Source: Candidatus Bathyarchaeia archaeon
Lineage (GTDB): Archaea; Thermoproteota; Bathyarchaeia; Bathyarchaeales; Bathycorpusculaceae
Direction of reading: 5' to 3'
DNA length: 64,000 nucleotides
Assembly (NCBI GenBank): GCA_038882975.1
Contig: JAVZNE010000002.1
Span: forward strand, 64,001-128,000
Shown one piece after another: positions 5,589-25,132 of the stretch (position 1 is the first letter of the stretch; each line of letters begins with the position of its first letter). Made by a program: the position numbers and the translations under genes. Under the pieces are notes generated by a model. The model ran no database searches. It saw only the letters and a program-made list of their open reading frames with translations, and had not been told where the DNA came from.

Positions 5589-6116
5589 TTAAGGTAGGAT
5601 ATACAAGGCTGCCTTTTTCCCTTTTAAAAGTGAAATAAGTCTTCGCCCTTTCCTCTCTTTAGCTACTTTTTCAAGGTAGTCCACTGTTCCACATACTATA
5701 GCACCTGTTGGACAAACCTCTTCACACGCTCTAGGCATCCAGTCAGGACGGTCATTGCAAAACGTGCACTTTTGCATCTTAAGGTCAGGGCCATACTTTG
5801 GCGCTCCGAAGGGGCAGACCCAGCTGCAAAGTCTGCAGCCTATGCATTTCTCTTTATCAACCAAGACCAATCCGTCTTCTCGTTTATAAATAGCCTTAGC
5901 AGGGCATGCAGCTATACAGTAGGGCTCTTCACAGTGCATGCATGCGATGGAAACATTTGTCCTTTCAACGGAAGGAAAAACGCCACTTTCAATCTCCATC
6001 ACCGTTCGGTAAGAGGGGACTGTTATGCCGTTCCAAACACGGCAAGCTATTTCGCAAGCATGACATTTTATGCATCTTTCAATGTCAACGAAAAAGCCTT
6101 TACGCGTTGACATCAA
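5589..6116 (-). CDS. 4Fe-4S dicluster subunit (DmsB/PsrB-like)
   Basis: CIKCHACEIAC, CMHCEEPYCIAACP, CIGCRLCSWVCP and KCTFC..ACEEVCP motifs. Confidence 0.9.
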   Translation of the reverse strand: MMSTRKGFFVDIERCIKCHACEIACRVWNGITVPSYRTVMEIESGVFPSVERTNVSIACMHCEEPYCIAACPAKAIYKREDGLVLVDKEKCIGCRLCSWVCPFGAPKYGPDLKMQKCTFCNDRPDWMPRACEEVCPTGAIVCGTVDYLEKVAKERKGRRLISLLKGKKAALYILP

Positions 6117-8317: not shown

Positions 8318-8794
8318 ATGGCTTTACATGGCGGTTCAGAAGATCTAACAAAGAAAATTGTTGAGATGAGCGGGCAAAACATTTTTTCATGTAATTTATG
8401 CGGCAAATGTACGGCTGGTTGTCCAATAGCAGATGTCATGGATATAAAGCCTCATCAAGTTGTAAGGTTGGCCCAAATACAAGCTGAAATTTTGTTGACG
8501 TCTAGGGCAATATGGCTTTGTGCATGTTGCCTTGCATGTGTGTCCCGGTGTCCAAAGCAGATAGATATCCCCAAATTGATGGAATCCTTCAGAAATTTGG
8601 TTTTGTCTGGTGGGATAGACTTCCTTGAATATGCTCCCGATTTGTCAACGCAGCTTCCAGTGCAAGCAATGGTTGCTGCACGGAGCAGATATACCTCAGT
8701 GAATTTGCCATCCGTGCGTCCAAGCATGAGGTTAGAGAAATATTTTACTCGTGAAAGGATACTAGCTCTGGTTAAGGGTGAAACCTCCAAATGA
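8318..8794 (+). CDS. hdrC: Heterodisulfide reductase subunit C
   Basis: CNLCGKCTAGCP and IWLCACCLACVSRCP. Confidence 0.9.
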   Translation: MALHGGSEDLTKKIVEMSGQNIFSCNLCGKCTAGCPIADVMDIKPHQVVRLAQIQAEILLTSRAIWLCACCLACVSRCPKQIDIPKLMESFRNLVLSGGIDFLEYAPDLSTQLPVQAMVAARSRYTSVNLPSVRPSMRLEKYFTRERILALVKGETSK

Positions 8795-9648
8795 AAGTTC
8801 CCTATTACCCAGGATGCCTACCCTATTCACGAACCATCGGACTAAATCTGCCTATAAAGGCGATTGCAAACGCCCTTAAAATTGAACTTATAGAAATTCC
8901 GGGGATTTGTTGCGGAGCGTTTTTCACAACAAACCCAGCAGATATGTATGGTCCGGTCCGCACTCTCATGGATGCGGGGAAAATTGGAAACGAGTTAATG
9001 ACCACATGCGCACTCTGTTATAACGTACTTAAGCAAGCAAACTCCACCATCAAAAGGGAACCAAAGAAACGCGAACAAATCAACGCTTTTCTAGGCGAGG
9101 AATATAACGGCGAAGTTAATGTACTTCATTTTCTAGAGTTTCTACGAGATAAAATCGGCTTTAACAAGTTAAATGGATATGTCAAAGTAAGCCTACAAGG
9201 CTTAAAAGTGGCTCCGTATTACGGCTGCCTGCTCTTACGGCCCTATGAGGAAATCAAACTTGACAACCCTGAGCATCCCACAATTTTTGAGGATTTTCTA
9301 ATAAACATAGACTGCGAACCCGTAGACTTCCCATACAAAACTGAATGCTGCGGGTCTTATTTAGCTGCCATCTCTTTTGACGCTGTCATAGAACACTCCT
9401 ATTCAATAATCAAATCAGCCTTACAAAGTGGAGCGGAAGCAATAGCTGTAGTTTGCCCGCTTTGCCACTTCAATCTTGACCAAATGCAAGAAAAGGTCAA
9501 GTTAAAATATAAAGATTTAAGCGAGATGCCCATATTCTATTTCACTCAGTTATTGGCAATAGCGTTAGGAATAAGGGATTCTTTGGGTTTTGAGCAACAT
9601 TTTGTTAATCCCTACCCTTTGCTGGACAAGAAATTAGGTAAAATCTGA
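8791..9648 (+). CDS. hdrB: Heterodisulfide reductase subunit B
   Basis: Two CCG domains: YYPGC..CCG..CALC and YYGC..ECCG..CPLC. Confidence 0.92.
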   Translation: MKVPYYPGCLPYSRTIGLNLPIKAIANALKIELIEIPGICCGAFFTTNPADMYGPVRTLMDAGKIGNELMTTCALCYNVLKQANSTIKREPKKREQINAFLGEEYNGEVNVLHFLEFLRDKIGFNKLNGYVKVSLQGLKVAPYYGCLLLRPYEEIKLDNPEHPTIFEDFLINIDCEPVDFPYKTECCGSYLAAISFDAVIEHSYSIIKSALQSGAEAIAVVCPLCHFNLDQMQEKVKLKYKDLSEMPIFYFTQLLAIALGIRDSLGFEQHFVNPYPLLDKKLGKI

Positions 9649-10185: not shown

Positions 10186-11235
10186 GTGTTTAACATGAAA
10201 AATGAAGTTGAAAATGTTATGGAAGAACTGCCAAACTCCATGGAAACAGGTAGACACTTTTATTATCTGAAGTTGCTGGAGCTTTGGGATGGATCAACCC
10301 TTCACTTGCCAATAATAGTAGTTTCAGGGAGGAAGACATGTCCCACTTTGTGTATTGTTGCATCCGTTATGGGTGACGAATTTCCAGGAACAGTTGTGGC
10401 TAGAAAGGTTGCGCTGGAATTAGATCCCGGAAAATTAAGAGGAACAATTATATCCGTTCCGATAGCGAACCCACCGTCATTCGGCTTTGGATCACATCCA
10501 CCCCTACACGTAAGCCCCCTAGACCACATGAACATGAATAGAATTTTTCCGGGTCGCCAAGACGGATATCCAAGCGAAAGAATCGCTTACGCAATTTTTG
10601 AGAAAGTTGTACGGAAAATGAAGGCAAACTATGTTGTCTCTTTTCATGGAGGGGGACCCTACTGTGAAGTTTACCCAGCCACCTACTTCACGGAAACAAA
10701 AGTTACAGAAGCCTCAATAGAGCTGGCCCTAGCCTTCGGAGTTGAACTGAACACAAAAATTTCGGAGGAGCTTCTTCCAACAGAGGAGCCTGAACGAGTT
10801 ACCGGCACATTGGATGCATGCTGCGGAAGACACGCCATACCAGCTATAATCGCAGACATCGGCGGATGGGGCATACTCTCAAATTACGGCTACTCATGGG
10901 TGGAAATAGGGTCTCGTGGAATTCTGAACATAATGAGATACTACAAAATGATTCCCGGAAAAGCTAAATTCCACCCGAAAGCTAAAGTTTTCGAAGGAAG
11001 AGTTTGGGTAAGACCGAACACAGGTGGATTTTTCGAAGCTAAAGTAAAACTAGGCCAAGGAGTTTCTAAAGGAAAAACTCTCGGCATAGTAACTGACGTT
11101 TTCGGGAAGAAAAAAGAAGAATTAATAGCCCCAAAAGATGGGGTCGTGCAACTCATAAGAACATACCCTGTTATAGGTTCAGGAGAAGAAGCATTCCTCA
11201 TCCATTACGGCGGCAAACCTATAAAACCACAATAG
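10186..11235 (+). CDS. Succinylglutamate desuccinylase/aspartoacylase (M14) family protein
   Basis: GDE, VPIANP, NMNRIFPG, SFHGG, C-terminal barrel (APKDGVV). Confidence 0.82.
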   Translation: MFNMKNEVENVMEELPNSMETGRHFYYLKLLELWDGSTLHLPIIVVSGRKTCPTLCIVASVMGDEFPGTVVARKVALELDPGKLRGTIISVPIANPPSFGFGSHPPLHVSPLDHMNMNRIFPGRQDGYPSERIAYAIFEKVVRKMKANYVVSFHGGGPYCEVYPATYFTETKVTEASIELALAFGVELNTKISEELLPTEEPERVTGTLDACCGRHAIPAIIADIGGWGILSNYGYSWVEIGSRGILNIMRYYKMIPGKAKFHPKAKVFEGRVWVRPNTGGFFEAKVKLGQGVSKGKTLGIVTDVFGKKKEELIAPKDGVVQLIRTYPVIGSGEEAFLIHYGGKPIKPQ

Positions 11236-11249
11236 GAACTGATGCAACC

Positions 11250-11945
11250 ATGGTGAATTCAAAAGAAGAGACCTTTGAAAACAGCCTTTTATGCGACACC
11301 CTAAAGAACTGCGGTAAAGTGTACTTTTTACTAGGAAAGATTTATGAAAAGGAAGTGACCGCTAACCTTCTTAAATCTCTTAGCGAAAGCATAACATTTT
11401 TTAGAAGCAAAAAGTTAAGCGACGAGGAATTAGAAAAAGGAATTGAACTGTTGGACGAGTATTTAAGTAAGCAAAGAAGCCGTGGCTTCGAGTGTGCAGA
11501 AGCAGAGTTGGCAGTTGATTATGCCAACCTTTTTCTAGGAGTTAAGGGCTTGCCTCATCCTTCAGAGTCAGCCTACAAGTGCGGTTTTATAATGGCAAGT
11601 CCTTGCGAGGAAGTACTTCGAACATATCAAAAGGCAAATCTTAACCTTAAAGAGGATTATAAAGAGCCAGCAGACCACATTGCCGTAGAACTATACTTCA
11701 TGGCAAACCTGTGCTGGAAAACCGCAGAAAATTTAGCCAAAAATAAGAAACACGAAGCCAAAAAGTGTTTACAAATAATGAAAGACTTTCTAAACAATCA
11801 TCTACTATCATGGATCCCGTCGTTCACTACGAACATTTCGAATTTAGCTATAACGGATTTTTATAGAGGTCTAGCAATAATCACTAAAAGGTTTGCCGAG
11901 CTTAACAAAGCCTTAACGGAACAAGCGCTTAAACTTTTAGCCTAA
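11250..11945 (+). CDS. TorD/DmsD family molybdoenzyme maturation chaperone
   Basis: DYANLFLG, HPSESAY, EPADHIAVELYFM, FLNNHLLSW. Confidence 0.9.
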   Translation: MVNSKEETFENSLLCDTLKNCGKVYFLLGKIYEKEVTANLLKSLSESITFFRSKKLSDEELEKGIELLDEYLSKQRSRGFECAEAELAVDYANLFLGVKGLPHPSESAYKCGFIMASPCEEVLRTYQKANLNLKEDYKEPADHIAVELYFMANLCWKTAENLAKNKKHEAKKCLQIMKDFLNNHLLSWIPSFTTNISNLAITDFYRGLAIITKRFAELNKALTEQALKLLA

Positions 11946-12023
11946 AACGCTGTTTACGGAAGTTTTTAAATAATTGCTCTTTAGTAACTGTTATCCAAAA
12001 CAATTGTAGAGGGGTAGGAGTCA

Positions 12024-14720
12024 ATGGATATTAAAGAATTATCGGACATTGCGTCGTCTTTAAGTCTTGCCTTCGACGGGGCAGCTTTAACCCGGGAAAC
12101 GCCGCTGAAGGAAGAAACTGCGAAAGAAATAGACTCAGACGACGTGAAGGTTTGCTATGTAAGTCACGGTCTTGGAGGCATCTCAGGTTCAGCTGAACCT
12201 CTCGAAGTTCACGTTAAAAATGGTAGAATATTGAGAATAAAGCCCATCCACTTCCCTGAGGTGAGGCTTTACGAGATAAAGGCTCGGGGAAAGACTTTCA
12301 CTCAGCCTGCTAAAACCTTACCATACTGGGTTAGCCTAGCCTACAAGAAACGTGTTTATTCACCTAACAGAGTAAGGTACCCCTTGAAAAGGGTGGATTG
12401 GAGCCCCGAAAACAGGAATCCCCAAAACAGAGGTAAAAGCGGTTTTGTTAGAATAACGTGGGAGGAAGCCCTAGACATAATTGAGAAGGAACTTAAACGC
12501 ATAAAAGAAACTTATGGACTGTGGTCCGTTCTTGTACAAGATGACGGGCATGGACAAGGAGGAGCTGTCCAAACACCCCACGGCATCCACCATGAATTGT
12601 TCCGCCAGCTTGGGGGATGGACACAGCAAGTTAGAAACCCCGACAGCTGGGAAGGATACTACTGGGGCGCAAAACACGTGTGGGGAATGGAGGGACCCCA
12701 CGCAGGGCTTCCACATCAAGACGCTATATTTGATGATATTCTTGAAAATACTGAAGTGCTAATTTTCACGGGATGCGATCCTGAAGCCACCGTTGCCGGA
12801 TTTGCGGGGCAGATCGGCAGCATCATGTGCCGATGGTTCAAAGAAGCTGGCATTAAAATAATTGCAATATCTCCCGACTGCAACTTTGCAAATGCAATAC
12901 ACGCCAATAAATGGATTCCAATAAGGCCAAATACGGATGGCGCGTTATATTTGGCAATTGCATATCTGTGGATAAAGAATGGAACGTACGACCAGAATTT
13001 TGTCCAAACCCACTGCGTTGGCTTTGAGGAATTCCGTAAATACGTAACCGGAGAGGAGGATGGAGTACCGAAAACACCAGAGTGGGCTGAGAAAATAACA
13101 GGGATTCCTTCTAGGGTTATAAAGGCGTTGGCTAAAGTATGGGTTAAAAAGCGGACATCTCTTGCACTTTTCTTCGGCGGTCCAAAAATTAGAGGCCCCT
13201 ACTCTCATGAAACAGCTAGGTTAGAAGTAATATGTTTGGCAATGCAGGGATTGGGAAAACCCGGGAGACAATTACTTAGAGGGTTCTACCCGGCCGCTAC
13301 TGGCAAAAGGATAGCGCCGATCCCTCAGTATCCAGAGACTACGAGAAGTTTTGTTAGCAGTCCCATGGCCAGATACACTGTTACAGCCGTTTCCCCAGTG
13401 ATTGTGCCAAAGGTGCTGGTAGCCGACGCAATTTTGAACCCCCCGATAACATGGTATGGTACAGGGGCGATAAGCGCAACAAGGGAAGATCAATTTAAAA
13501 AGTATACGTTTCCACCTGAGGGCCACCCGGGTATACGTATGATTTGGAACGCCAACGGCTGCTATATCACTTGCTGGAACAGTAAGATAATAGACGCATA
13601 TAGAAGCCCCCAGATAGAGTTCATAGTGGCTGTTACTCCTTGGCTTGAAAACGAGGCCATGTTTGCTGATATAATACTTCCAGCACAGACGATTTTTGAA
13701 CATGAAGATCTAATAATAACCAGTAGATCTGCGGTGAGCGCAACCACGTATCAGGAAAAATGTATTGAACCCATAGGTGAATCAAAAAGCGATTATGAAA
13801 TATGCCGTTTAATAGCCCAAAGGATGGGTGTTGGAAATGCTTTTCCACCACAAGAGGAGCTCATGAAAAGCTTATACGAAGCATCTTACGCTGCGACAAA
13901 ATATGGAGTAAGCTGGGAAGAATTCAAGAAAAGGAAAATATTCATCCCGGACCACCCAACATGGGAGGAATGGAAACAAATCCAAAATAATATAGCTACA
14001 ACCTATGGCCTAACATGGGGCGCCAAGCCAGGACTAACATGGTTCTATGAATTGCCGGAAGGAAAAGGTCTTGAAACCCCCACGGGCAAGCTAGAGATAG
14101 TTTCTAGCGGATTAGCCGAGCACTTTCCGGATGATGAGGAAAGGCCTCCTCTCCCCCGGTACATACCCTATGGGGAGACGCATCAAGAAAGTCTACTCCA
14201 CCCGAGAGCCAAAAAATACCCATTACTTTTGGAGTCAAACCATCCGAAATGGAGATTTCACGCACAAGGAGACGACATAACATGGTTGAGGGAAATACCC
14301 ACATGCAAAGTAAGGGGGCCGGATGGTTACCTATACGAGCCCGTTTGGATTCATCCCATCGACGCAGCCAAAAGAGGCATAAAAACAGGGGATATAGTGA
14401 AAGTTTACAATGAACTAGGAACGGTGCTCTGCGGAGCCTACGTAACGGAACGAATAATGCCTGGAAGCGTCCTTGCGCATCACGGGGCAAGGGCTGACTT
14501 GGTATCCATAAGCCCGCTCATAGATAGAGGTGGAGCAATCGACCTAATTGTTCCGCCCAAACCAATGTCTAAAAACGCTGTGGGTCAAGTTTGCAGCGGC
14601 ATCCTTGTTGAAGTTGAAAAAGTGGATATTACTGAGCTCATGAAAAAATATCCGGAGGCTTTTAAGCGTCCACAACATCCGGATGTTGGTCCATTCTATG
14701 AAACCTGGGTTATGGGGTGA
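12024..14720 (+). CDS. Molybdopterin enzyme, pyrogallol-phloroglucinol transhydroxylase large subunit (AthL)-like
   Basis: RNPQNRGKSGFVRITWEEALD, NPDSWEGYYWGAKHVWG (Ser ligand motif), no N-terminal FS0 Cys motif, YEPVWIHPIDAAKRGI. Confidence 0.85.
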   Translation: MDIKELSDIASSLSLAFDGAALTRETPLKEETAKEIDSDDVKVCYVSHGLGGISGSAEPLEVHVKNGRILRIKPIHFPEVRLYEIKARGKTFTQPAKTLPYWVSLAYKKRVYSPNRVRYPLKRVDWSPENRNPQNRGKSGFVRITWEEALDIIEKELKRIKETYGLWSVLVQDDGHGQGGAVQTPHGIHHELFRQLGGWTQQVRNPDSWEGYYWGAKHVWGMEGPHAGLPHQDAIFDDILENTEVLIFTGCDPEATVAGFAGQIGSIMCRWFKEAGIKIIAISPDCNFANAIHANKWIPIRPNTDGALYLAIAYLWIKNGTYDQNFVQTHCVGFEEFRKYVTGEEDGVPKTPEWAEKITGIPSRVIKALAKVWVKKRTSLALFFGGPKIRGPYSHETARLEVICLAMQGLGKPGRQLLRGFYPAATGKRIAPIPQYPETTRSFVSSPMARYTVTAVSPVIVPKVLVADAILNPPITWYGTGAISATREDQFKKYTFPPEGHPGIRMIWNANGCYITCWNSKIIDAYRSPQIEFIVAVTPWLENEAMFADIILPAQTIFEHEDLIITSRSAVSATTYQEKCIEPIGESKSDYEICRLIAQRMGVGNAFPPQEELMKSLYEASYAATKYGVSWEEFKKRKIFIPDHPTWEEWKQIQNNIATTYGLTWGAKPGLTWFYELPEGKGLETPTGKLEIVSSGLAEHFPDDEERPPLPRYIPYGETHQESLLHPRAKKYPLLLESNHPKWRFHAQGDDITWLREIPTCKVRGPDGYLYEPVWIHPIDAAKRGIKTGDIVKVYNELGTVLCGAYVTERIMPGSVLAHHGARADLVSISPLIDRGGAIDLIVPPKPMSKNAVGQVCSGILVEVEKVDITELMKKYPEAFKRPQHPDVGPFYETWVMG

Positions 14721-14726
14721 ACATAT

Positions 14727-15569
14727 ATGGGGAAAGTCTTTGTCATAGACGTAGCTAAGTGCAATGGTTGCTACTGCTGCCAAATAGCATGCAAAGATGA
14801 ACATGTGGAAAACGATTGGAGACCCTACACGAAACCGCAGCCTGACACTGGACATTTTTGGCTGAAAATTGAAGAACAGGAAAGGGGCAGCACCCCCAAA
14901 GTTAGAGTAACCTACATACCGCGCCTCTGTATGCACTGCGATAGCCCGCCATGCATCACGGCATGCCCTGTCAGGGCGATAACAAAGAGGGCGGATGGAA
15001 TAGTCCTCATAGATCAAGCGAAATGTAATGGATGCAAACAGTGTCTGGATGCTTGTCCATACAATGCGATATATTTTAACGACCAATTTAAGGTCGCCCA
15101 AAAATGCACCATGTGCGCTCACATATTGGATGGAAAGGATCCACTTGTTAAAGTTCCAAGATGCGTTGAAGTCTGTCCCCATAACGCCATAATTTTCGGA
15201 GAGTATGCCGAACTGAAAGACTTAATTGAAAAAGCGGAATTTCTAAAACCCGAATACGACACCAAACCGCGAGTCTACTATCTAAACATGCCGAAGCCAT
15301 TCATAGCGGGAGAGGTTTACGACCCAGAACTGGATGAATGCATTGAAGGAGCAAAAGTGGTTGCAGTGAACCTGAGAACTGGGAAAACACATCACACCGA
15401 GACTGACGAGTTCGGAGACTTCTGGCTTGAAAACCTAGAGTGGGGAAACACTTACAAGGTTAATATAGAAAAGGAAGGCTACGTTCCGTGGTCTATAGAC
15501 GAAGTAAAAACGGATAAAGATGTAAACTTAGGCGAAATAACATTACTGAAAAAACCCAAAAAACGCTGA
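14727..15569 (+). CDS. Transhydroxylase small subunit (BthL)-like Fe-S protein with C-terminal beta-sandwich domain
   Basis: IDVAKCNGCYCCQIACKDEH, CMHC, KCTMCAH; C-terminal TDEFGDFWLENL domain. Confidence 0.85.
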   Translation: MGKVFVIDVAKCNGCYCCQIACKDEHVENDWRPYTKPQPDTGHFWLKIEEQERGSTPKVRVTYIPRLCMHCDSPPCITACPVRAITKRADGIVLIDQAKCNGCKQCLDACPYNAIYFNDQFKVAQKCTMCAHILDGKDPLVKVPRCVEVCPHNAIIFGEYAELKDLIEKAEFLKPEYDTKPRVYYLNMPKPFIAGEVYDPELDECIEGAKVVAVNLRTGKTHHTETDEFGDFWLENLEWGNTYKVNIEKEGYVPWSIDEVKTDKDVNLGEITLLKKPKKR

Positions 15570-15637
15570 CGAGGAAACTATTTTAGCCAAAATGGCAAAG
15601 TTATAAAGCAAAGGCTATGCATTTGGCGAGTGGTGAT

Positions 15638-15973
15638 ATGATAAAAGTAAAATTTGAAGAGGCTAAACCATACGACGCCCGTGGACACTTTAACATGGTT
15701 GCATTGAGACTCCAACACAAAGAAAACACTGGGGTCGAAAAATTTTGGGTCGGTTTGTCACATTTTCTTCCCGGCGGAGGGGCAGAAATGTCTGCCAGCA
15801 ATTTCGAGAGAGTGTATGTAATGCTATCTGGCAAAATTACCGTAATAGCAGAGGACGGAAAGGAAATAGAGCTTGAACCCCTTGATTCAATTTACATACC
15901 ACCCGGCGAAAAGCGCTCACTAATCAACAGAACTAACATGCCGGCGAGCATGCTGGTCATTTGCAGCACTTAG
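15638..15973 (+). CDS. Cupin domain protein
   Basis: SHFLPGGGAEM..ERVYVMLSG..DSIYIPPGE; ATG at 15638 follows a GGTGA SD (alternative start 15617). Confidence 0.85.
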   Translation: MIKVKFEEAKPYDARGHFNMVALRLQHKENTGVEKFWVGLSHFLPGGGAEMSASNFERVYVMLSGKITVIAEDGKEIELEPLDSIYIPPGEKRSLINRTNMPASMLVICST

Positions 15974-15991
15974 ACCAAAAACAAAATAAGG

Positions 15992-16894
15992 ATGGTTCTT
16001 TCACCACTTATGGCGGAGAGTGAATTTATGCGTGAAGATGTGCTGGAAAAGTATTTGCATGGATTTTTAGACAAAAGCGCCCTTGGCAAGCCAGAAGATG
16101 CCCTCAAAAAGCCGCTAGCTAAAATCTTTGGAAAGAATGTTGAGATTTTCGATTTAACACAGCCTTTCAGTGGGATGACACCAATATGGCCTTACGCAGC
16201 TGGAAACCCGCAGGTCACAAGGCTACGTTCTCATAACCATGATCGTGTGGTGGCACATTCTATAACGCATACAATGCACATCGCGACACATGTGGATGCA
16301 CCGCTTCACGTTGAAGAGGGCTACCCATCAATTGACCAAATGCCTTTGGAGCGTTACATAGGAGATGGTGTTGTCGTCTCAATTCCTAAGAAAACATGGG
16401 AAGTGATTACCCCTGAAGATCTTGAGAAGGTTGACCCTCCAATATTGGAGGGCGACATAGTGATAATCAACTCTGGTTGGCATGTTTACTATGGAGACAG
16501 CACTCGTTACTTCTGTTATGCCCCAGGATTATACAAGGATGCGGCAGAATGGTTTGTCAAGAAGAAAGTCAAAGGTGTTGGTGTTGACGAGCCCGCCATT
16601 GATCATCCGCTTGGAACGAGGCTTGTCCAGACAGCAGGGGGCTTCCAGCCTCTCTTACCATGGCTGATTGAAGCGTACAAGAAAGCTACTGGAAGAGATG
16701 TCTATCAAGATTTCCCATACTGGGAGCCATGTCACAGAATACTATACACGCATGGAATCTTTGGAATAGAAAACGTTGGAGGAGAAATAGACAAGGTAAC
16801 TGGCAAGAGATGTGTCATAGCTGCTTTTCCGCTCAAATGGATTGGGGGCGACGGGTCAATGGTCCGCTTAGTAGCCATGGTGGAGAAAAGGTAG
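15992..16894 (+). CDS. Cyclase (kynurenine formamidase-like) family metallohydrolase
   Basis: HIATHVDAPLH metal motif, GVGVD, HRILY..GIENVGG, GGDGSMVRLVA. Confidence 0.88.
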   Translation: MVLSPLMAESEFMREDVLEKYLHGFLDKSALGKPEDALKKPLAKIFGKNVEIFDLTQPFSGMTPIWPYAAGNPQVTRLRSHNHDRVVAHSITHTMHIATHVDAPLHVEEGYPSIDQMPLERYIGDGVVVSIPKKTWEVITPEDLEKVDPPILEGDIVIINSGWHVYYGDSTRYFCYAPGLYKDAAEWFVKKKVKGVGVDEPAIDHPLGTRLVQTAGGFQPLLPWLIEAYKKATGRDVYQDFPYWEPCHRILYTHGIFGIENVGGEIDKVTGKRCVIAAFPLKWIGGDGSMVRLVAMVEKR

Positions 16895-16905
16895 GGAGGA
16901 TAACC

Positions 16906-17676
16906 GTGGAGGACTTGTTCAGGCTTGACGGCAAAATAGCAGTTGTGATAGGCGGTGGTGGAGGTATAGGAAGAAACCTCGCCGAGGGATTAGTTCGATA
17001 CGGTGCAAAAGTAGTCATAGCCAGCAGAAACCTAGAAAACCTAGAAAAAGTGGCTAGAGAAATAAGCTCAACCTATAATGGCGAAGTCACTGCTTTTCAA
17101 GTTGACGTTACAAACGACGAAAGTGTAGCGCGATTAAGGGACCAAGTGGTATCAAAGTATGGCACTGTTGACATCCTAGTAAATTCACAAGGATATAACG
17201 TGAAAAGCTCTGCGGCAGAGTTCCCAACAAATGAATGGAACACGTTATTTGACATCAACGTTAAAGGCACAATGCTGGCATGCCGAGAGTTTGGAAAAGT
17301 AATGATTGAGAAAAGAAAGGGAAAAATAATCAACATGTCATCGGTCAGAGGTATCCGCGCAACAAAATGGCCCGGCAACCTTGGCTACTGCACAACAAAA
17401 AGCGCTGTAGACATGATTACAAAAGCTTTGGCGGCTGAATGGGCTCCATACAACGTTAACGTTAACGCCATCGCTCCGGCATGGGTGGATACAGGCTTTT
17501 CTCCAAGCTTAAGAGACCCCGCCCGTTTAAAAATAGCCCTAGAAAGCATTCCCATGGGAAGAATCGCTACACCTAAAGATGTAGTTGGCGTATGTGTCTT
17601 TCTCGCATCACCTGCGTCAGACTATGTAACTGGCCAAATAATCTATGTGGATGGCGGACTTACCCTCATAGGGTAA
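16906..17676 (+). CDS. Short-chain dehydrogenase/reductase (candidate phloroglucinol reductase-like)
   Basis: GGGGGIG, YCTTK catalytic motif, VNAIAP, YVTGQIIYVDGG; GTG at 16906 after GGAGG. Confidence 0.88.
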   Translation: MEDLFRLDGKIAVVIGGGGGIGRNLAEGLVRYGAKVVIASRNLENLEKVAREISSTYNGEVTAFQVDVTNDESVARLRDQVVSKYGTVDILVNSQGYNVKSSAAEFPTNEWNTLFDINVKGTMLACREFGKVMIEKRKGKIINMSSVRGIRATKWPGNLGYCTTKSAVDMITKALAAEWAPYNVNVNAIAPAWVDTGFSPSLRDPARLKIALESIPMGRIATPKDVVGVCVFLASPASDYVTGQIIYVDGGLTLIG

Positions 17677-17779
17677 TGAAACTATTCTTTCCTTGTTCCT
17701 TTTTCTTTATGAAATCGTTAAAGCCTTTGTAGTGAACGCCCAGAAGGTATACAAAGAAAACGGGAGATAGAGTAAGCGT

Positions 17780-19012
17780 TTACCACCATTTTTCGAGAAT
17801 TATGCATCCGTAGGCGCCATATGCGCCGTAAGCTGTACACGCCCCAATTTTAAGGTTTTTCTTCGCTTGCCTTTCTTGAGCTTCTCCTCTGAGCTGCCTA
17901 AACAACTCGTGGATCATCATAAAGGCTTGGCTCATCACCGCCTCGCCGAAGGATGCCGTCCCGCCACTTAGGTTTACTGGCAGTTTGCCATCGTGCCTGA
18001 TCTGCTTCTCCTTAATGAGTTTGTCTGTTTCTTCCCTTTCCCATCCCATTAGTTGGTCTATCCAGTTTATGGTGTGGAAGCAGCTTGTGTCATGACATTC
18101 AACAATGTCGATGTCCTCAGCTGTGATACCAGCCAGTTTGTAGGCTTTTTCTACTGGTTTGCGCCACTCAGTGAAAGGTTTAAGCCCTTTTGCTCCACCT
18201 TGTGTGGAGAAAACGCGGAGCCGTGGTATGGGCTCGCCATAAACTGGACCCCCTACCGCTGAAGCCGCTATCTTTACTGGTTTATCCGTTATTTTCCTCG
18301 CCGTGTCGCCGTCTGTTATAACAGCTGCTCCTCCACCGCTGCTAGTTGCGCATATCATATACAAGTGTAAGGGGTCGCAGACAACGGGTGAACTTAGAAC
18401 GTCTCTGGCTAAAAACACTTTTTTGTATCGAGCATATGGGTTTCTAGCGCCATACTCGCTTTGAATCTCCTTCACTAAGGCCATAAGCTCTTTTATACTG
18501 TCAACATCTTGTCCCATTTCGTACGCGCGTCGCCTTGCCCACATAGCCCAGTAGGCGGGATTGGTCGCGCCAATAACTTTTATTGCAGCAGCGTATGGAT
18601 CCGGGTCTAGAATCGACTGCCCTGGCAGGTAAAACCCCTTTGGAGAATTGTCTATCCCGGCGATAAGCACCTTTTTAAGCGAGCCAGTTTTTATCATGGA
18701 ATCCGCAACAGCAAAGGATATGGAAGCACTTGCACAAGCTGCACAAACATTTACACATTGCGCGTTACTTGTGCCTATTCTTTCTGCAAGCCTATGAGCA
18801 AAATGTTGAGCACTTGTTGTGATATAAGATGGATTGTCAAAGGGAATTGCCGTAGTGTTAGTGATTATCGCATCAAGCTCTCCCGGCTTCATTTTAGCTT
18901 CCCTGAGAGCCCTTACGGCAACTTCTGCAAGCTTATCTATAAGCAGCGGAGTGGGCTGACCAGCTTCAACCCACTCTGTTATTGCAACACTAACAATTGC
19001 ACTTTCAGGCAT
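17780..19012 (-). CDS. Thiolase, SCP2/BbsB/PhlC-like type
   Basis: NVCAACASAS, GARNPYA, ECHD, VNLSGG, QLRGEA. Confidence 0.88.
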   Translation of the reverse strand: MPESAIVSVAITEWVEAGQPTPLLIDKLAEVAVRALREAKMKPGELDAIITNTTAIPFDNPSYITTSAQHFAHRLAERIGTSNAQCVNVCAACASASISFAVADSMIKTGSLKKVLIAGIDNSPKGFYLPGQSILDPDPYAAAIKVIGATNPAYWAMWARRRAYEMGQDVDSIKELMALVKEIQSEYGARNPYARYKKVFLARDVLSSPVVCDPLHLYMICATSSGGGAAVITDGDTARKITDKPVKIAASAVGGPVYGEPIPRLRVFSTQGGAKGLKPFTEWRKPVEKAYKLAGITAEDIDIVECHDTSCFHTINWIDQLMGWEREETDKLIKEKQIRHDGKLPVNLSGGTASFGEAVMSQAFMMIHELFRQLRGEAQERQAKKNLKIGACTAYGAYGAYGCIILEKWW

Positions 19013-19013
19013 G

Positions 19014-19430
19014 TTACATCACCGGCTCAAAGAAATAGCTTAAATAGACGCTTTCGTCGTCCTCGTAAAGTTTGTCGATTTTAAGTCTTAACCTCATGCC
19101 TATCTTAAGCAGCTTTTCATCTGGAACTTTTATTCTGCTGACAACTATTATGCCTTCAGGAAGCTCCACGGCGCCGACCACATAAGGTGCTTTATGGTAT
19201 TGGAACGGCTCGCGTAAACTGTATGCATGAACAGTATATGTATACAGCGTCCCCTCAGTGCTCAAGAACCACTCCTCAACATTGACGCTGTGGTCACACT
19301 CCGGGTTATTGCAAACGTTAGACTTTGGAAATTGTATGCTTCCACATTTAGGACATCTACTACCGATTAGCCGCGGATTTTCAGACGGCCATTCAAAAAG
19401 TCCATCCATTATAGGAACTTCTTTCTTCAT
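19014..19430 (-). CDS. DUF35 Zn-ribbon/OB-fold thiolase partner
   Basis: LIGSRCPKCG..FP..C..C, GTLYTYT, PYVVGAVELPEG; likely start ATG 19430. Confidence 0.88.
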   Translation of the reverse strand: MKKEVPIMDGLFEWPSENPRLIGSRCPKCGSIQFPKSNVCNNPECDHSVNVEEWFLSTEGTLYTYTVHAYSLREPFQYHKAPYVVGAVELPEGIIVVSRIKVPDEKLLKIGMRLRLKIDKLYEDDESVYLSYFFEPVM

Positions 19431-19541
19431 ATTAACTAACCTCTTAAAAAGTGAGCTGCTACTGATTTTAATTTTTTGGTAATAGAAAACTAAATTAACA
19501 AAGGGTGAATACATGAAAGCGCAGCACGATAAAGAGGGTGA

Positions 19542-20339
19542 GTGATGGACTCGGAATTTAAACGCATAATTTATGAGAAAAAGGACGGTGTCGCATGGAT
19601 CACCTTAAACAACCCAGAACGCTACAACGCCCTCGATTACGAGATGCGAAAGGAATTAAAAACTGCTCTAGAAGACGTGGGCAAAGATGGCAACATAGTT
19701 GCGGTCGTCATTAAAGGATCAGAAAAAGCATTTAGCGCCGGAGGGGATGTTCGCGCTTTTGCAGAAATGAAGCCTTTTGAGGTTCTAGAACTGATTAGAG
19801 ATGTTGGAACAGCCTTTGTCTTGGGAAAAATCATTAGAGACATGCCAAAACCAGTCATAGCAGCAGTAAGCGGATACTGTTTGGGAGCAGGGTTTGAACT
19901 AGCTCAAGCATGCGATATAATATTCGCCTCAGAAGACGCTGTTTTCGGCCAGCCCGAAATAAACGTTGGACTTATCCCCGGCGGTGGTGGAACCCAGAGG
20001 CTGCCAAGATTCATTGGAGAAAAGAAGGCTAAGGAATTAATTTTTACTGGAGATAGATTGTCAGCCAAAGAAATGGCCGAATTAGGTTTGATCAACAAAG
20101 TTGTTCCGTTAGATCAGCTCATGAACACTGTTAACGAGTTTATTGAAAAAATTAAAAGCAAAAGTCCGTTGGTAATTGGAATCGCCAAGGAAGCAATAAA
20201 CCAATCCTTGGAAACAAGTTTATCCGAAGGCTTCAAATACGAGGCCCAACTCTTCGCACAGTTGTTCAGCACCGAAGACCAAAAAGAAGGGGCAAAGGCA
20301 TTTCTAGAAAAAAGAAAGCCTGTTTGGAAGGGAAAATAA
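19542..20339 (+). CDS. Enoyl-CoA hydratase/isomerase (crotonase family)
   Basis: AFSAGGD, GAGFELA, FGQPEINVGLIPGGGGTQRL. Confidence 0.93.
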   Translation: MMDSEFKRIIYEKKDGVAWITLNNPERYNALDYEMRKELKTALEDVGKDGNIVAVVIKGSEKAFSAGGDVRAFAEMKPFEVLELIRDVGTAFVLGKIIRDMPKPVIAAVSGYCLGAGFELAQACDIIFASEDAVFGQPEINVGLIPGGGGTQRLPRFIGEKKAKELIFTGDRLSAKEMAELGLINKVVPLDQLMNTVNEFIEKIKSKSPLVIGIAKEAINQSLETSLSEGFKYEAQLFAQLFSTEDQKEGAKAFLEKRKPVWKGK

Positions 20340-20415
20340 CCGAGAGAAACATGTGGCAAGAATAGTCCAACCTAAATAATGTTTATAAATGTTCAACGGA
20401 GAAAACTAATCCAAC

Positions 20416-21564
20416 GTGAGTTGTATGATAAAAGCACCCTTAGAAGGAATAAAAGTACTCGATTTCACACATGAAGTTGCTGGACCACACTGCACAATGC
20501 TACTAGGTGATCTTGGTGCCGATATAATAAAGGTGGAGATGCCCGGGAAAGGAGACAGAGGAAGACACTGGGTTGGCATGAGAGAAACCATATTTATTAC
20601 AAATAACAGAAACAAGAAAAGCATTGTTTTAGACCTCAAAAGCGAAGAGGGAAGAAAAATAGCGTTCGAACTGGCAAAAAGGGTTGATGTGTTAGTTGAA
20701 AATTTTGTGCCTGGAACTATGAAGAAATTCGGCTTGGACTATGAAAGCATCAAAAGGGTTAACCCGAGAATAATTTATTGCTCGATTTCTGGATATGGGC
20801 AAGACGGCCCCTACAGTAGCCGCCCGGCATGGGATCCGATCATCGAGGCTGAATCCGGGTTAATGTCGCTTACTGGAGACCCAGAACCATGTTTGCCTTC
20901 AAGGATACCCGCCTCAATCATAGACTACGGCGCCGGTGTGTATGCAGCATTAGCAATAGTTTCAGCTTTACTGTATCGAGAGAAAACTGGAAACGGACAA
21001 ATGATTGACATCTCAATGCTTGATATCTCCGCGCTTTGGGCGGGATATTGGATTGCTTACAGTTCAATAACAGGGGAAGTCCGAGAAAGAATGGGTTCAG
21101 CTGCTCCTGTCGGAGCACCATACCAAGTTTTCAGAACAAAAGACTCCTACATTTTCATCGCAGCCTTTGAAGATGAACACTGGAAGAAATTATGCCAAGT
21201 TATAAAGGCGGAAAGTCTTTTGAACGATCCCTTGTATTCAACGAGGGAGAGCAGAGCTGCAAACAGAAAAATCCTTGTGGAAAAACTTGATAAGATAATC
21301 AGCGCATGGAACACTAAGGATTTGGTGGATGCTCTAATTGCAGCTGGAGTGCCATGTGCCCCCGTAAACAATACATTGGAAGTGGCAAGCCACCCACAAC
21401 TACTCTACCGAGGCATGATTGTTGAAATAGAATATAGGGGACAGAGAGTAAAAGTTCCAGGGATACCCTTCAAATTCTCTGAATGCCAATTAAAAATTAG
21501 GCACCTTCCACCGGAAATAGGGCAACACACAGAGGAAATTTTACATGCCCTCGGATTCAAATAG
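20416..21564 (+). CDS. CaiB/BaiF (class III) CoA-transferase
   Basis: PLEGIKVLD, GADIIKVE, NRNKKS, ISGYGQDGP, PEIGQHTEEIL. Confidence 0.93.
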   Translation: MSCMIKAPLEGIKVLDFTHEVAGPHCTMLLGDLGADIIKVEMPGKGDRGRHWVGMRETIFITNNRNKKSIVLDLKSEEGRKIAFELAKRVDVLVENFVPGTMKKFGLDYESIKRVNPRIIYCSISGYGQDGPYSSRPAWDPIIEAESGLMSLTGDPEPCLPSRIPASIIDYGAGVYAALAIVSALLYREKTGNGQMIDISMLDISALWAGYWIAYSSITGEVRERMGSAAPVGAPYQVFRTKDSYIFIAAFEDEHWKKLCQVIKAESLLNDPLYSTRESRAANRKILVEKLDKIISAWNTKDLVDALIAAGVPCAPVNNTLEVASHPQLLYRGMIVEIEYRGQRVKVPGIPFKFSECQLKIRHLPPEIGQHTEEILHALGFK

Positions 21565-21646
21565 TAGCAGCTGAAAACATCCTTCCCAAATTTTTACTAG
21601 CATAACTAAGTAAAACTTAAGGTATTTTAAAAGATAAGGTGCGAGC

Positions 21647-22858
21647 TTAACTTTTCCTCAAAGGTAAGAGAAAAAGAATGGATAACGCTGAAGTGACGAT
21701 GGCGAGTAGAAACGACGATCTGAGAGTCCCAGTCATGTCGGCTATCCACCCAGCTATTGGAGGTGAGGCCATGCATCCTACTCCGAGGAATATGGTCATT
21801 AAACCCAGTGCCATGCCAGCATGTTCTAAGGAAAATATATCTGATGTTAAGGCGGTGTAGAGGGGCCAGGCAGCCCCATAACCGGCACCGTAAATGGCGG
21901 ATGAGACAGCTAGCATGATGGATTCCAAATTTGGAAAATTCCGAGCTACGACCATGCCTAAGATGCCTACTGTTGATATGCCTCCGCATAACAACATAGT
22001 TTTCAACCTACCAATAAACTCGGAAAGCGACGCCAAAACCAGGGTTCCTGGTATTGCTCCAAAAGCAATTATGCTCACAAGCATGGAGGCAAATTTGTAA
22101 GGCATGCCTATTTCTTGAAAGCCATATGTGCTAAGAAATGTGAAGGGGATCATTACGTAAAAACCGACAAGCATATACGAAAAGCCCACAAGCCACAATT
22201 TTATATTTTTGACTATTGCAACGCTTTCTTTCAAGAAGTTTTTGCCAACACTCCTGCTTTGACTTTGAGCGAAACCTTCTGGATAGGCTTTGAACAAGAG
22301 CCAAGTCATAGGGGCAAGCAAGAAGCCAGCCGCACTAAACACACGCCATCCAAGCTTCCAGCTTCCAATTTCTACCAACATTGGCAAAATTATGCCTGTT
22401 ACTGCGAAGCCTATTGGCGCACCGATATTCACCATTGCAACTGCGAAGGCCCTTTTCTTGAACCATCTCTGGACAACCACAACAACTGGAACCCAGCATG
22501 CTGCACAGCCAATACCTGCCAGCATGAAGGATAAACTTGCCTCCACCAACGTATTAGACAAGCTCATAAAAAGCGTGCCAGCACCTAGCACCAATATAAA
22601 AAGGGTGATTATCTTTCTTGCGTCAAATCTATCTACAATAACGCCTAGAAAAAACGAGAAGACAGTATAGCCAATGAAATAAGATGTGTAAATAACTCCG
22701 GCCTCAAGTTTCGAAGCGTTCAGTGAAGCCACCATTTCTGGGAGCAAAACGCCATAGCCATATCTGATTGAGTAATGGACAAGTATTATAAAAAACCCTA
22801 CAAGCAAAACAGAAACACCTTTGCCAGTAACAGCACCGGCACGCTTTTTTAACAGCAT
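21647..22858 (-). CDS. MFS transporter
   Basis: About 12 hydrophobic segments; GVIVDRFDARK motif A. Confidence 0.9.
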   Translation of the reverse strand: MLLKKRAGAVTGKGVSVLLVGFFIILVHYSIRYGYGVLLPEMVASLNASKLEAGVIYTSYFIGYTVFSFFLGVIVDRFDARKIITLFILVLGAGTLFMSLSNTLVEASLSFMLAGIGCAACWVPVVVVVQRWFKKRAFAVAMVNIGAPIGFAVTGIILPMLVEIGSWKLGWRVFSAAGFLLAPMTWLLFKAYPEGFAQSQSRSVGKNFLKESVAIVKNIKLWLVGFSYMLVGFYVMIPFTFLSTYGFQEIGMPYKFASMLVSIIAFGAIPGTLVLASLSEFIGRLKTMLLCGGISTVGILGMVVARNFPNLESIMLAVSSAIYGAGYGAAWPLYTALTSDIFSLEHAGMALGLMTIFLGVGCMASPPIAGWIADMTGTLRSSFLLAIVTSALSILFLLPLRKS

Positions 22859-24217: not shown

Positions 24218-25132
24218 TCATTTCTCTTCGGGCATTCGAAGGTATTTTATGACTATTGGGCGCGAAAATCCCGTTATTTCTGCAATTTCGTCGATTGTCA
24301 GCCCTTGTTGTCTGAGTGCTCGCATTGTTTGTATGTCTTTGGGTGTTGGGCTTATGCCTTTTATGTGTGGTGTTATTGGAGTTTTCATTTTTAAGTATTC
24401 CATTAGTCTTTCTGGTTCAACTAGGCTTAGGACTGTTGGTGGCGTTGGTATTGTTGTGTTTGGTATGTAGAATTTTCCGTGTTGGAGTATTAAGTCCACT
24501 TGGGGGGCTTTTTCTCCTCTAATGTATGGTCTAATTTGCCTTAAGATTTCTATTAGTTTGTCTCCTGCAAGTTCTATTCTCCAGTTTCCCCTGTATAGGC
24601 GGGGTGTTACGCCCAAAATTTTTGCGAAGTGTTCAATGTCTTCAAGGTCTGTTTTTGCCACCCTAAATCTTGGATAGTAGCCCCAATATTCCCTACCATA
24701 TATGTCATGCACAACTGTGGGGCTTCTCTGGTATCTTAGGTATCCCTCATCCATTAATAATTGGGCTAGCTGGGCGGCTTCTATTGGGTTTAGCTTTGGG
24801 ATTACTTCGGGTGGGCGTGCACGAGGACGCACAATAACTTGATTGAGATTTGATGTTTGGTTTTCTATTAGGGGTTGGGGGTCTCTTCCATAAGGCATTG
24901 GGAAGTATCGTGCTTCATATCCTAACGCTTTAAGCCTTTCCACATGGATTCTAGCATATTCCATTTTAGAGAAAGGTCTAGGCTCTAGGCGTCTCCCCGT
25001 TGCTGGGTGAACGGCAACAACTTTCCACCATAATGCTTCACGTTGGGGGTTGTGGAGTGAAACTCCGCAAATAACACATTTCTCCCACTCTTCAGCATTA
25101 AGTGAACCGCAAGCAGGACAGCGTTTGCTCAT
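24218..25132 (-). CDS. Zn-ribbon + LAGLIDADG endonuclease-like + HTH protein
   Basis: CPACG..CVICG; AQLAQLLMDEG..PRFRVAKTDLEDIEHFAKILG..WRIELAG..ILRQIRPY; C-terminal GLTIDEIAEITGFSRPIVIKYL. Confidence 0.7.
   Translation of the reverse strand: MSKRCPACGSLNAEEWEKCVICGVSLHNPQREALWWKVVAVHPATGRRLEPRPFSKMEYARIHVERLKALGYEARYFPMPYGRDPQPLIENQTSNLNQVIVRPRARPPEVIPKLNPIEAAQLAQLLMDEGYLRYQRSPTVVHDIYGREYWGYYPRFRVAKTDLEDIEHFAKILGVTPRLYRGNWRIELAGDKLIEILRQIRPYIRGEKAPQVDLILQHGKFYIPNTTIPTPPTVLSLVEPERLMEYLKMKTPITPHIKGISPTPKDIQTMRALRQQGLTIDEIAEITGFSRPIVIKYLRMPEEK

Follow-up and report, generated by a model that had tools for sequence, protein, structure and literature searches.

Can an archaeon of the Bathyarchaeia open the ring of trihydroxybenzenes anaerobically, and with which enzymes? 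The question is raised by a gene cluster at positions 11250-22858 of the window, a stretch of 64,000 nucleotides from the genome of a Candidatus Bathyarchaeia archaeon (G000:C2:64001-128000), in which a first-pass annotation had seen a candidate pathway for pyrogallol/phloroglucinol-type degradation. G000 denotes this source genome (1.42 Mb, 94.68% complete, 2.9% contaminated), other G and L numbers denote the genomes and loci compared with it, and positions without a prefix are those of the window. The nearest proteins and loci of the cluster carry Bathyarchaeia names. Open reading frame (ORF) listing together with Pfam and NCBIfam scans recovered all the gene classes named in the annotation as intact ORFs (Table 1), and the genes for a TorD chaperone, a molybdenum (Mo) enzyme of the AthL family ("type A") and its Fe-S subunit, a cupin, a cyclase-family hydrolase and a short-chain dehydrogenase/reductase (SDR) do form one co-directional run (11250-17676), with intergenic gaps of -4 to 78 bases. 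On the grounds of homology, synteny, signature residues and a complementary distribution of genes, we think it fairly probable that the cluster is part of a larger, sporadic Bathyarchaeia island, whose two units in the window would ferment hydroxylated benzenes to acetyl-CoA through a variant of the phloroglucinol route. The first unit (11250-15569) would be a TorD-assisted, two-subunit enzyme with a Mo-bis(pyranopterin guanine dinucleotide) cofactor (Mo-bisPGD) that feeds another hydroxybenzene into the route, and the second (15617-21564) would be the variant pathway itself. The general proposal of an anaerobic route for trihydroxybenzenes by way of phloroglucinol, which these gene classes would fit, was borne out at the sequence level. 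The upper pathway (reductase and cyclohydrolase) and the transhydroxylase are already known from bacteria; the new part, judging from the genes, is an undescribed CoA-dependent lower half together with the type A enzyme.

In the part of their text considered here, Zhou et al. (2023; PMC10470551) describe four phloroglucinol enzymes in Clostridium scatologenes, namely an SDR reductase (PGR), a Mn-dependent cyclase-family hydrolase (DPGC), an HADH-type dehydrogenase (TfD) and a BKACE lyase (TAL), and they list the four-gene cluster in Archaeoglobus from bioinformatics; the earlier remark that there was no characterised archaeal example has to be read beside this instance, which was listed on bioinformatics only. 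The window resembles the C. scatologenes cluster in having an SDR beside a cyclase-family hydrolase that keeps the metal motif and the Trp-x-Tyr pair, and homologous cupin-SDR-cyclase trios accompanied by HADH and BKACE were found in Acetoanaerobium, Novosphingobium, Rhizorhabdus and the bathyarchaeal genome G001. It differs in its archaeal host, in the lineage of its SDR, in the small cupin that accompanies the genes (the same part of the paper has no mention of a cupin) and, above all, in its lower half.

The cyclase has the PF04199 fold and the divalent-metal motif HIATHVDAPLH, which was conserved in the 13 cyclases aligned. Its W66-P-Y68 matches Trp20/Tyr22 of the C. scatologenes enzyme (CsDPGC), 13 and 15 residues past the start of the Pfam domain; the spacing equals that of the Acetoanaerobium cluster cyclase, and WPY was present in 13 of the 13 sequences of the alignment, outside which CsDPGC itself stands. 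According to Zhou et al. (2023; PMC10470551, same part of the text), Trp20 and Tyr22 replace Ile and Leu of isatin hydrolase. When the cyclase was compared with plasmid records by tblastn, 30 records were obtained, the best with 51-53% identity. It was 50-53% identical to cyclases of Novosphingobium, Rhizorhabdus and Mycobacterium clusters, 61% to the cyclase of a canonical cluster in G001 and 62% to the Archaeoglobus fulgidus protein P0170. In plasmids pLA3 of Novosphingobium pentaromativorans and pSWIT02 of Rhizorhabdus wittichii the gene order was cyclase-cupin-SDR-3-hydroxyacyl-CoA dehydrogenase-(MFS)-BKACE, where MFS stands for a major facilitator superfamily transporter, and the Acetoanaerobium record, which is unannotated, showed by Pfam cupin-SDR-HADH-cyclase-BKACE. 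In Mycobacterium riyadhense the cyclase was found with a cupin and BKACE, the SDR was nearby but separated, and no HADH was annotated in the stretch. A quick maximum-likelihood tree (IQ-TREE, 126 rows) placed the window cyclase in a 26-row subclade (support 100), named cyc-1 here, nested in an 81-row, mostly archaeal clade (support 100) with Archaeoglobus proteins and the G001 canonical cyclase. The protein clusters, although in a distinct subclade, with the cyclases of PGR-DPGC-TfD-TAL clusters and not with an unrelated subfamily, and we regard it as a candidate dihydrophloroglucinol cyclohydrolase.

Two side observations concern cyclase relatives. An orthologue with 87% identity in G221 (C7:11268-12149) contains one in-frame TGA, for which a sequencing error, a pseudogene or recoding are possible explanations, and the homologues P0135, P0140-P0144 and P0167 (464-515 aa, 48-50% identity over the cyclase part) have about 200 extra residues with no recorded Pfam domain.

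The SDR carries the motifs of a classical SDR (GGGGGIG, NMSS and YCTTK, that is YxxxK), and by sequence it is a member of the lineage of its best match in the PDB, 1vl8 (204 bits). Phloroglucinol clusters use two SDR lineages, because the best match of the Novosphingobium cluster SDR was 5g4k (180 bits), whereas that of the Acetoanaerobium cluster SDR, 43% identical to the window protein, was 1vl8 (215 bits, against 147 for 5g4k). The entries 5g4k and 5g4l we take to be the solved phloroglucinol reductase. A profile of the window SDR lineage was compared with metagenome contigs and gave 572 relatives, from which 80 loci were kept; the counts refer to the 53 loci of at least 5 kb and to genes within 9 kb. 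A cyclase was present in 34 of these loci, HADH in 31, BKACE in 30, a cupin in 26 and an AthL-family Mo gene in 20. The SDR was the only one in 46 loci, and in the other seven the second SDR was not better matched by a 5g4k-type query. In canonical clusters HADH fills the dehydrogenase role, and the usually single SDR must therefore be the reductase there; synteny thus identifies this SDR subfamily as the reductase gene of phloroglucinol clusters. In G000 the window SDR was the only SDR matched by three cluster-SDR queries, and the cyclase, the cupin and the class III CoA-transferase were also single-copy by the queries used. Synteny and elimination together make the SDR a candidate ring reductase, an assignment that its sequence alone would not give.

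The cupin shared 41-48% identity with those that accompany the cyclase and SDR genes in the clusters of Novosphingobium, Rhizorhabdus, Mycobacterium and Acetoanaerobium, and 75% with that of the canonical cluster in G001. In the ESM Atlas it matched generic cupin clusters only. The gene is a recurrent accessory of phloroglucinol clusters and was found in three of the nine variant loci described next.

Below ring opening, the window lacks both known enzymes. No BKACE was detected in G000 (94.68% complete) either with PF05853 (0 matches) or by tblastn with two BKACE queries, and there is no HADH in the locus; the HADH genes of G000 lie on other contigs, one at C9:28477-29340 followed by a crotonase and one at C4:83541-84446 with thiolase and crotonase genes close by. 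Where HADH and BKACE would be expected, the module contains a crotonase, a thiolase-like enzyme, a DUF35 protein and a class III CoA-transferase. The same module directly follows the type A pair in L001 and L002, is reshuffled in G001, G002 and G003 (CoA-transferase-cyclase-SDR-crotonase-DUF35-thiolase, with the SDR missing in G003) and occurs in the metagenome loci L071, L072, L077, L081, L090, L100 and L101. ORF clustering of nine variant loci showed the cyclase, SDR, thiolase, DUF35 and crotonase in 9/9, with 32-84% identity to the window proteins, and this co-occurrence of five families indicates an arrangement beyond chance. The seven metagenome loci with crotonase, thiolase and DUF35 had neither HADH nor BKACE, and none of the SDR-anchored loci with HADH or BKACE had the crotonase, a complementary distribution that argues for functional replacement. 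This group of archaea has both versions, at times within a single genome, since G001 holds the variant module as well as a canonical cluster (L059:4765-15783, on G001:C8) with cyclase (61% identity), HADH, BKACE, cupin (75%) and SDR (47%). The flanks of that canonical cluster encode a 2-oxoacid:ferredoxin oxidoreductase, both subunits of an ADP-forming acyl-CoA synthetase and an AMP-forming acetyl-CoA-synthetase-like protein.

The replacing enzymes have features of their own. The best PDB match of the thiolase-like protein was the archaeal thiolase 6esq (102 bits), followed by PhlC (5m3k, 81 bits). In all nine variant loci the nucleophilic Cys was kept (ACAS/ACAT), Glu stood for the catalytic His (GE, not GH) and DUF35 adjoined the thiolase gene. 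The pairing of thiolase with DUF35 is shared with the archaeal thiolase/HMGCS/DUF35 complex (6esq) and with PhlACB (5m3k), the closest solved thiolase relatives; unlike these, the window has no HMG-CoA synthase or PhlA partner, and its catalytic His is replaced. In the crotonase, the context of the second catalytic Glu was GQPEINVG in seven of the eight loci aligned and GQTEINVG in L077, and that of the first (GAGFELAQACD) was read in the window protein only. CoA-transferases with 71-82% identity were present in L002, L056, L057 and L058 and with 37-39% in L090 and L101; the gene was absent from L001 and L071, and the CoA-transferase of the Novosphingobium cluster was 37% identical.

With these enzymes, the SDR would reduce phloroglucinol to dihydrophloroglucinol at the expense of NADPH, the cyclase would open the ring to 3-hydroxy-5-oxohexanoate, the class III CoA-transferase would form the CoA ester of the ring-opened acid, and the crotonase and the Cys/Glu thiolase-like enzyme with DUF35 would stand in for TfD and TAL. 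Because turning phloroglucinol into three acetates involves no net redox change, one oxidation is needed after the SDR reduction, and it could be placed in three ways. A housekeeping HADH might oxidise 3-hydroxy-5-oxohexanoyl-CoA, the thiolase then cleaving triacetyl-CoA, or the single SDR might perform both the reduction and the re-oxidation on the same carbinol. The third way, speculative as it is, we prefer because only here does the invariable crotonase have a role: dehydration would give 5-oxohex-2-enoyl-CoA, a thiolytic split would yield acetyl-CoA and crotonyl-CoA, and the oxidation would be deferred to the C4 level and done by the HADH-crotonase pairs of G000. Finally, housekeeping crotonase, HADH and thiolase, together with an ADP-forming acetyl-CoA synthetase, would deliver acetate and ATP; genes for ACD-type synthetases were located in G000 at C15 and C7 via ATP-grasp_5.

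A CoA-dependent phloroglucinol route, passing through a 3-hydroxyacyl-CoA and thiolysis to acetyl units, is said to have been observed in extracts of Pelobacter acidigallici and Eubacterium oxidoreducens, and to our knowledge no genes have ever been assigned to it. Compared with that reported description only, the CoA-transferase and thiolase classes of the window would fit the route; the invariable crotonase and the His-to-Glu change in the thiolase of the variant loci are not predicted by the scheme.

G000 has two AthL-family pairs in the neighbourhood of the module. An AthL/BthL orthologue pair lies outside the window at G000:C2:58994-62441, about 15 kb upstream of type A. Its large subunit (C2:58994-61582, ending 2.4 kb before the window) scored 1096.1 bits to 4v4c_A over residues 12-860 and its Fe-S partner 197 bits to 4v4c_B; the large subunit keeps all four pocket residues, in SSHHxWGNxGYR (H144, R153), FYFPGYAEGGISGD (Y404) and the GGY of the Y560 insertion. 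Type A is 40-43% identical to this orthologue. Its own best solved relative was also 4v4c_A, which scored 451.5 bits in two pieces, whereas the best DMSO reductase scored 233, and it carries the motif RNPDSWEGYYWG. The N-terminus is acidic and has neither a twin-arginine (Tat) leader nor the Cys motif of an FS0 cluster. A Ser ligand, together with these two absences, characterises type A as a Mo-bisPGD subunit of the DMSO reductase family like AthL of P. acidigallici (PDB 4v4c/4v4d/4v4e); in the NPDSWEG context D207-S208 align with AthL D174-S175, and H176 with H144. In contrast to AthL, Pro (P185) stands at R153, the Y404 motif (FYFPGY/FYFPGYAEGG) is absent, and the Y560 insertion is missing, with Val at the aligned place. 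Of His144, Arg153, Tyr404 and Tyr560, which in AthL reportedly handle substrate and co-substrate, His144 is thus the only one kept.

The Fe-S partner of type A resembles BthL in having the C-terminal beta-barrel domain: its best solved relative was 4v4c_B (194 vs 120 bits), and the alignment spans that domain, to residue 272. It differs from the three-cluster BthL in its four complete cluster motifs, with 17 Cys in the first 190 residues. Four complete motifs with 16-17 Cys were seen in the partners of the window enzyme, of the L071 orthologue and of two enzymes of a "type B", whereas the partners on the orthologue side (G000, L077, L090) had 12 Cys and one motif missing, as in the BthL alignment. 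Since a far closer pair lies upstream (1096.1 against 451.5 bits), R153, Y404 and Y560 are lost and the partner has four clusters, type A is, by its sequence, a distinct, cytoplasmic member of the AthL family and neither an AthL orthologue nor a pyrogallol transhydroxylase. The full four-cluster electron wire and the altered pocket lead us to propose that, in a net redox reaction, it probably hydroxylates or dehydroxylates a different hydroxybenzene, the product of which would enter the phloroglucinol route. Thus, the AthL/BthL likeness noticed in the first-pass annotation holds for the family and fails for the transhydroxylase itself. Its mapping of the enzyme classes onto the pyrogallol/phloroglucinol steps stands for the cyclase and the SDR, by lineage and synteny, and does not stand for the Mo enzyme or for the lower half; as to the SDR, subfamily synteny favours the phloroglucinol reductase that had been proposed, and closeness to the solved enzyme does not.

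Homologues of type A are numerous. Of 8000 candidates scored, 4915 had E <= 0.001, and the 120th match still reached 951 bits and 51% identity; those with names include Bathyarchaeia, Nezhaarchaeales, Conexivisphaera and Nitrososphaerota. In L002, too, a TorD chaperone gene (48% identity) precedes the Mo gene, and fused TorD-Mo forms of about 1130 aa occur among the homologues.

The type A pair lies directly upstream of the module in the window, L001, L002, L071 and L072. A type B pair (55% identity) was found 3-5 kb from the module in L056 and L058, and in L058 this proximity may be due to chance, because the one of the two intervening ORFs that was scanned is an FBPase. Directly upstream of the module in L077, L081 and L090 are orthologue-side enzymes, 58-69% identical to the upstream paralogue of G000; in L090 one co-directional run comprises orthologue-side Mo and Fe-S genes, crotonase, cyclase, SDR, CoA-transferase, DUF35, thiolase and a second Mo and Fe-S gene. 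Among the AthL-family genes near the SDR in metagenome loci (n = 25), 17 belonged to the orthologue side and 8 to the type A side, L106 and L107 having both. On one contig, the distance from the AthL orthologue to a cyclase was about 18 kb in G000, 14 kb in G001, 14 kb in G003 and 6 kb in G005, where the cyclase concerned is the 61% paralogue adjoining the orthologue and not cyc-1. In G221, the cyclase is about 14 kb away from a match, not compared with AthL, whose identity to type A is 43% (the value of the G000 AthL orthologue).

At a cut-off of E <= 1e-150, the type A enzyme was present in 4 of 61 relatives, and carriers had several AthL-family paralogues each (7 in G221, 5 in G025 and 2-8 in G001-G005). 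The expansion of this family is marked in some small (1.3-1.7 Mb) Bathyarchaeia genomes. The patchy distribution of the island fits a gain by transfer.

A number of observations weigh against the interpretation of the cluster as a phloroglucinol-fermenting island. The module has no dehydrogenase besides the SDR, which implies that either the role of the SDR or the lower chemistry may be misassigned. The SDR is only 34-35% identical to proteobacterial cluster SDRs, and 5g4k was absent from the best 60 of its 378 PDB matches, the lowest of these 60 scoring 124.8 bits. The CoA-transferase was found in only five of the nine variant loci, and L001 and L002 have no cupin. No module gene was seen beside the type A pair orthologues (81-84% identity) of L003-L006 and L008, although the flanks of L003-L005 are short, and L007 contained the Mo gene only; in the two loci with long, annotated flanks, the neighbours are MtrH, DUF1847 and fibrillarin genes (L006) and an amino-acid-type ABC transporter and AcnX (L008), so the adjacency of type A and the module is not obligatory. 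As regards conservation of the cluster, then, the five-gene module persisted, and the linkage to the Mo and Fe-S genes did not hold everywhere. The cyclase (E <= 1e-40) was present in 2 of 201 genomes of the class and 2 of 61 relatives, both counts including G000, and in none of 13 congeners. In G005 the cyc-1 gene stands alone amid housekeeping genes, and cyc-1 occurs together with the 61% paralogue in G001, G002 and G005.

This last coexistence, with the second cyclase of G001 placed in a canonical cyclase-HADH-BKACE-cupin-SDR cluster, means that the variant module may serve a different substrate. It would then act on a related compound that type A supplies, either a reduced aromatic or a cyclic beta-diketone, with products of resorcinol, hydroxyhydroquinone or substituted phloroglucinols as candidates; we hold this explanation to be possible but unlikely. 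The separation of cyc-1 as a fully supported subclade, the constant crotonase, which is superfluous in the published phloroglucinol chemistry, and the pocket of type A, unlike that of AthL, are all in its favour. However, G000 and G221 hold cyc-1 only and yet carry the AthL orthologue (in G221, the match not compared with AthL), whose product would be phloroglucinol, and in L077, L081 and L090 the module comes directly behind an orthologue-side enzyme (58-69% identity). Moreover, the Trp-x-Tyr pair is unchanged in cyc-1, and the window cupin is 75% identical to that of the canonical cluster.

In another explanation, the SDR would be the 3-hydroxyacyl-CoA dehydrogenase of a beta-oxidation set like that of benzylsuccinate degradation, the ring being reduced by another enzyme or the SDR doing both. 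The window shares with the Bbs enzymes (BbsEF, BbsH, BbsCD and BbsAB) a class III CoA-transferase, a crotonase, an SDR and a thiolase-DUF35 pair, that is, four of the five classes; unlike the bbs operon, no acyl-CoA dehydrogenase domain was found among the ORFs of 11250-22858. The SDR is FabG-like, BbsD is among the PDB matches of related cluster SDRs, and the oxidation that is needed has no other dehydrogenase in the module to perform it. Nevertheless, the NCBIfam matches to BbsB (79 bits, cut-off 750) and to BbsA on the DUF35 protein (44 bits, cut-off 250) are far below the family cut-offs, the canonical clusters pair the same SDR subfamily with HADH, it is the sole SDR in 46 of the 53 SDR-anchored loci, and the three cluster-SDR queries revealed no other SDR in G000 able to reduce the ring. 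On these grounds we judge it rather improbable.

It is very improbable that the adjacency is fortuitous, with the Mo enzyme an ordinary S- or N-oxide or respiratory-type reductase and the CoA genes serving general acyl-CoA or lipid metabolism, since, in spite of the name trimethylamine-N-oxide reductase given to JGI homologues, matches of 263-333 bits (below cut-off) to the NCBIfam bisC, dmsA and torA models, the foreign neighbours of the 81-84% Mo-FeS orthologues (MtrH, fibrillarin or amino-acid-type ABC transporter genes) and the other thiolase, crotonase and HADH sets of G000, the AthL score is twice that of any DMSO/TMAO reductase, type A has no Tat leader, type-A-side enzymes stand beside phloroglucinol genes in the unrelated metagenome loci L073, L106, L107 and L108, the five-gene module with the cyclase recurs in 9/9 variant loci, and G000 has one specific copy each of the cyclase, cupin and SDR genes.

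The coordinates and domain matches of the genes are collected in Table 1.

Table 1. Genes of the cluster in the window, with their strand and the domain or family matches obtained.
Feature	Position	Strand	Pfam/NCBIfam match
TorD/DmsD-type cofactor-insertion chaperone	11250-11945	+	Pfam Nitrate_red_del, 98.9 bits; NCBIfam TorD, 101 bits, below cut-off
Mo-bisPGD catalytic subunit, type A, AthL family	12024-14720	+	Pfam Molybdopterin, Molydop_binding, AhtL-like_1st
Fe-S subunit of the type A enzyme	14727-15569	+	Pfam Fer4_11, CarboxypepD_reg (48 bits)
Small cupin	15617-15973	+	Pfam Cupin_2
Cyclase-family hydrolase, cyc-1 lineage	15992-16894	+	Pfam Cyclase (PF04199), 121 bits
Classical SDR	16891-17676 (long ORF 16729-17676)	+	Pfam adh_short_C2, 210 bits
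SCP-x/archaeal-type thiolase-like protein	17780-19012	-	Pfam Thiolase_C_1
DUF35 Zn-ribbon/OB-fold protein	19014-19514	-	Pfam OB_ChsH2_C, zf-ChsH2
Crotonase (enoyl-CoA hydratase)	19542-20339	+	Pfam ECH_1, 249 bits
Class III CoA-transferase	20416-21564	+	Pfam CoA_transf_3, 417 bits
MFS transporter	21647-22858	-	Pfam MFS_1, 178 bits

The start of the SDR is most likely the GTG at 16891, which overlaps the cyclase stop by 4 bases, because the first 68 residues of the long ORF lie before the domain, which starts at residue 69, and orthologue alignments cover only 256 of the 315 residues. The DUF35 protein is probably about 20 codons shorter than its ORF, as orthologue alignments cover 138-147 of 166 residues. 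Whether the MFS transporter belongs to the system is uncertain: it had no counterpart in L001-L014, and the Novosphingobium cluster includes an MFS gene. About 1.4 kb past the MFS gene, the minus strand (24218-25132) encodes a 304-aa protein that starts with a zinc ribbon, ends with a resolvase-type HTH_7 domain and may mark an island edge; no tRNA or integration site was found within the window.

Upstream of the cluster, an AstE/AspA-family (succinylglutamate desuccinylase/aspartoacylase-like) gene (10186-11235), not found in L001-L014, directly precedes TorD. Before it, 2436-4769 encodes a fusion of an HdrA-like flavoprotein with an MvhD/FlpD domain and 4769-5578 a methyltransferase; an FdhA-like Mo enzyme is encoded on the minus strand at 6113-8212, and HdrC/HdrB-like proteins at 8318-9648. 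An HdrC/B-like pair, with DUF1284, was also present upstream of the Mo gene in L002, and the pair may be the electron-transfer partner of the four-cluster Mo enzyme. The window start (window 1-960 and L061:18393-19901) falls within the gene of a further Mo-bisPGD enzyme, about 823 aa long, which has an Fe4S4 (FS0) domain at its N-terminus. The region G000:C2:50300-62450 (L061:6244-18351) encodes MoeA, MobB, a MobA-like protein, an ATP-binding cassette (ABC) importer of five genes (two ATPases, two permeases and a Peripla_BP_6 binding protein), a 200-aa protein that matches no Pfam family, and then the AthL/BthL orthologues; a comparable importer was seen upstream of the type A orthologue in L008. 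On contig C2, a stretch of about 45 kb contains six or more Mo-bisPGD genes.

In L006, an MtrH-family methyltransferase and a DUF1847 protein (L006:8929-9834 and 13583-14266) flank the type A orthologue pair. MtrH-like proteins have been linked to O-demethylation of methoxylated aromatics in Bathyarchaeia, and this neighbour may hint at methoxy-aromatic use. A single UbiD-family gene was found in G000 when a gallate decarboxylase was looked for; UbiD enzymes also serve archaeal isoprenoid synthesis, and no conclusion was drawn. The sole strong DNA match among public sequencing runs was a hot-springs metagenome, which may be the source of the DNA, and the runs listed for 11250-21200 included no RNA run.

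Bathyarchaeia are among the most abundant archaea of sediments and are credited with the use of lignin-derived aromatics. Known ring-cleavage genes were not found in cultured Bathyarchaeia, according to the part of the text of Yu et al. (2023; PMC10989822) considered here. Literature on Bathyarchaeia together with transhydroxylase, phloroglucinol, pyrogallol or polyphenol, as far as our partial survey extended, gave no link to the pathway, and the loci listed by Zhou et al. (2023) may already include some from Thermoproteota or Bathyarchaeia. The island provides concrete candidate genes with which a member of this group could open, without oxygen, the rings of trihydroxybenzenes that come from tannins and flavonoids. 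It further suggests genes for a lower pathway that depends on CoA, the same gene set being present in divergent lineages. The most far-reaching version would unite a five-gene lower pathway, in which the crotonase first dehydrates 3-hydroxy-5-oxohexanoyl-CoA and the Cys/Glu thiolase then makes a vinylogous retro-Claisen split into acetyl-CoA and crotonyl-CoA (or the SDR lends a hydride and retakes it after ring opening), with type A relatives acting as new redox-active phenol hydroxylases or dehydroxylases that funnel into phloroglucinol; we regard this combination as doubtful, and if it were true, Bathyarchaeia would have a real capacity for anaerobic cleavage of aromatic rings. Finally, the many AthL-family paralogues in small genomes suggest broad, unexplored molybdenum-dependent transformations of phenols.

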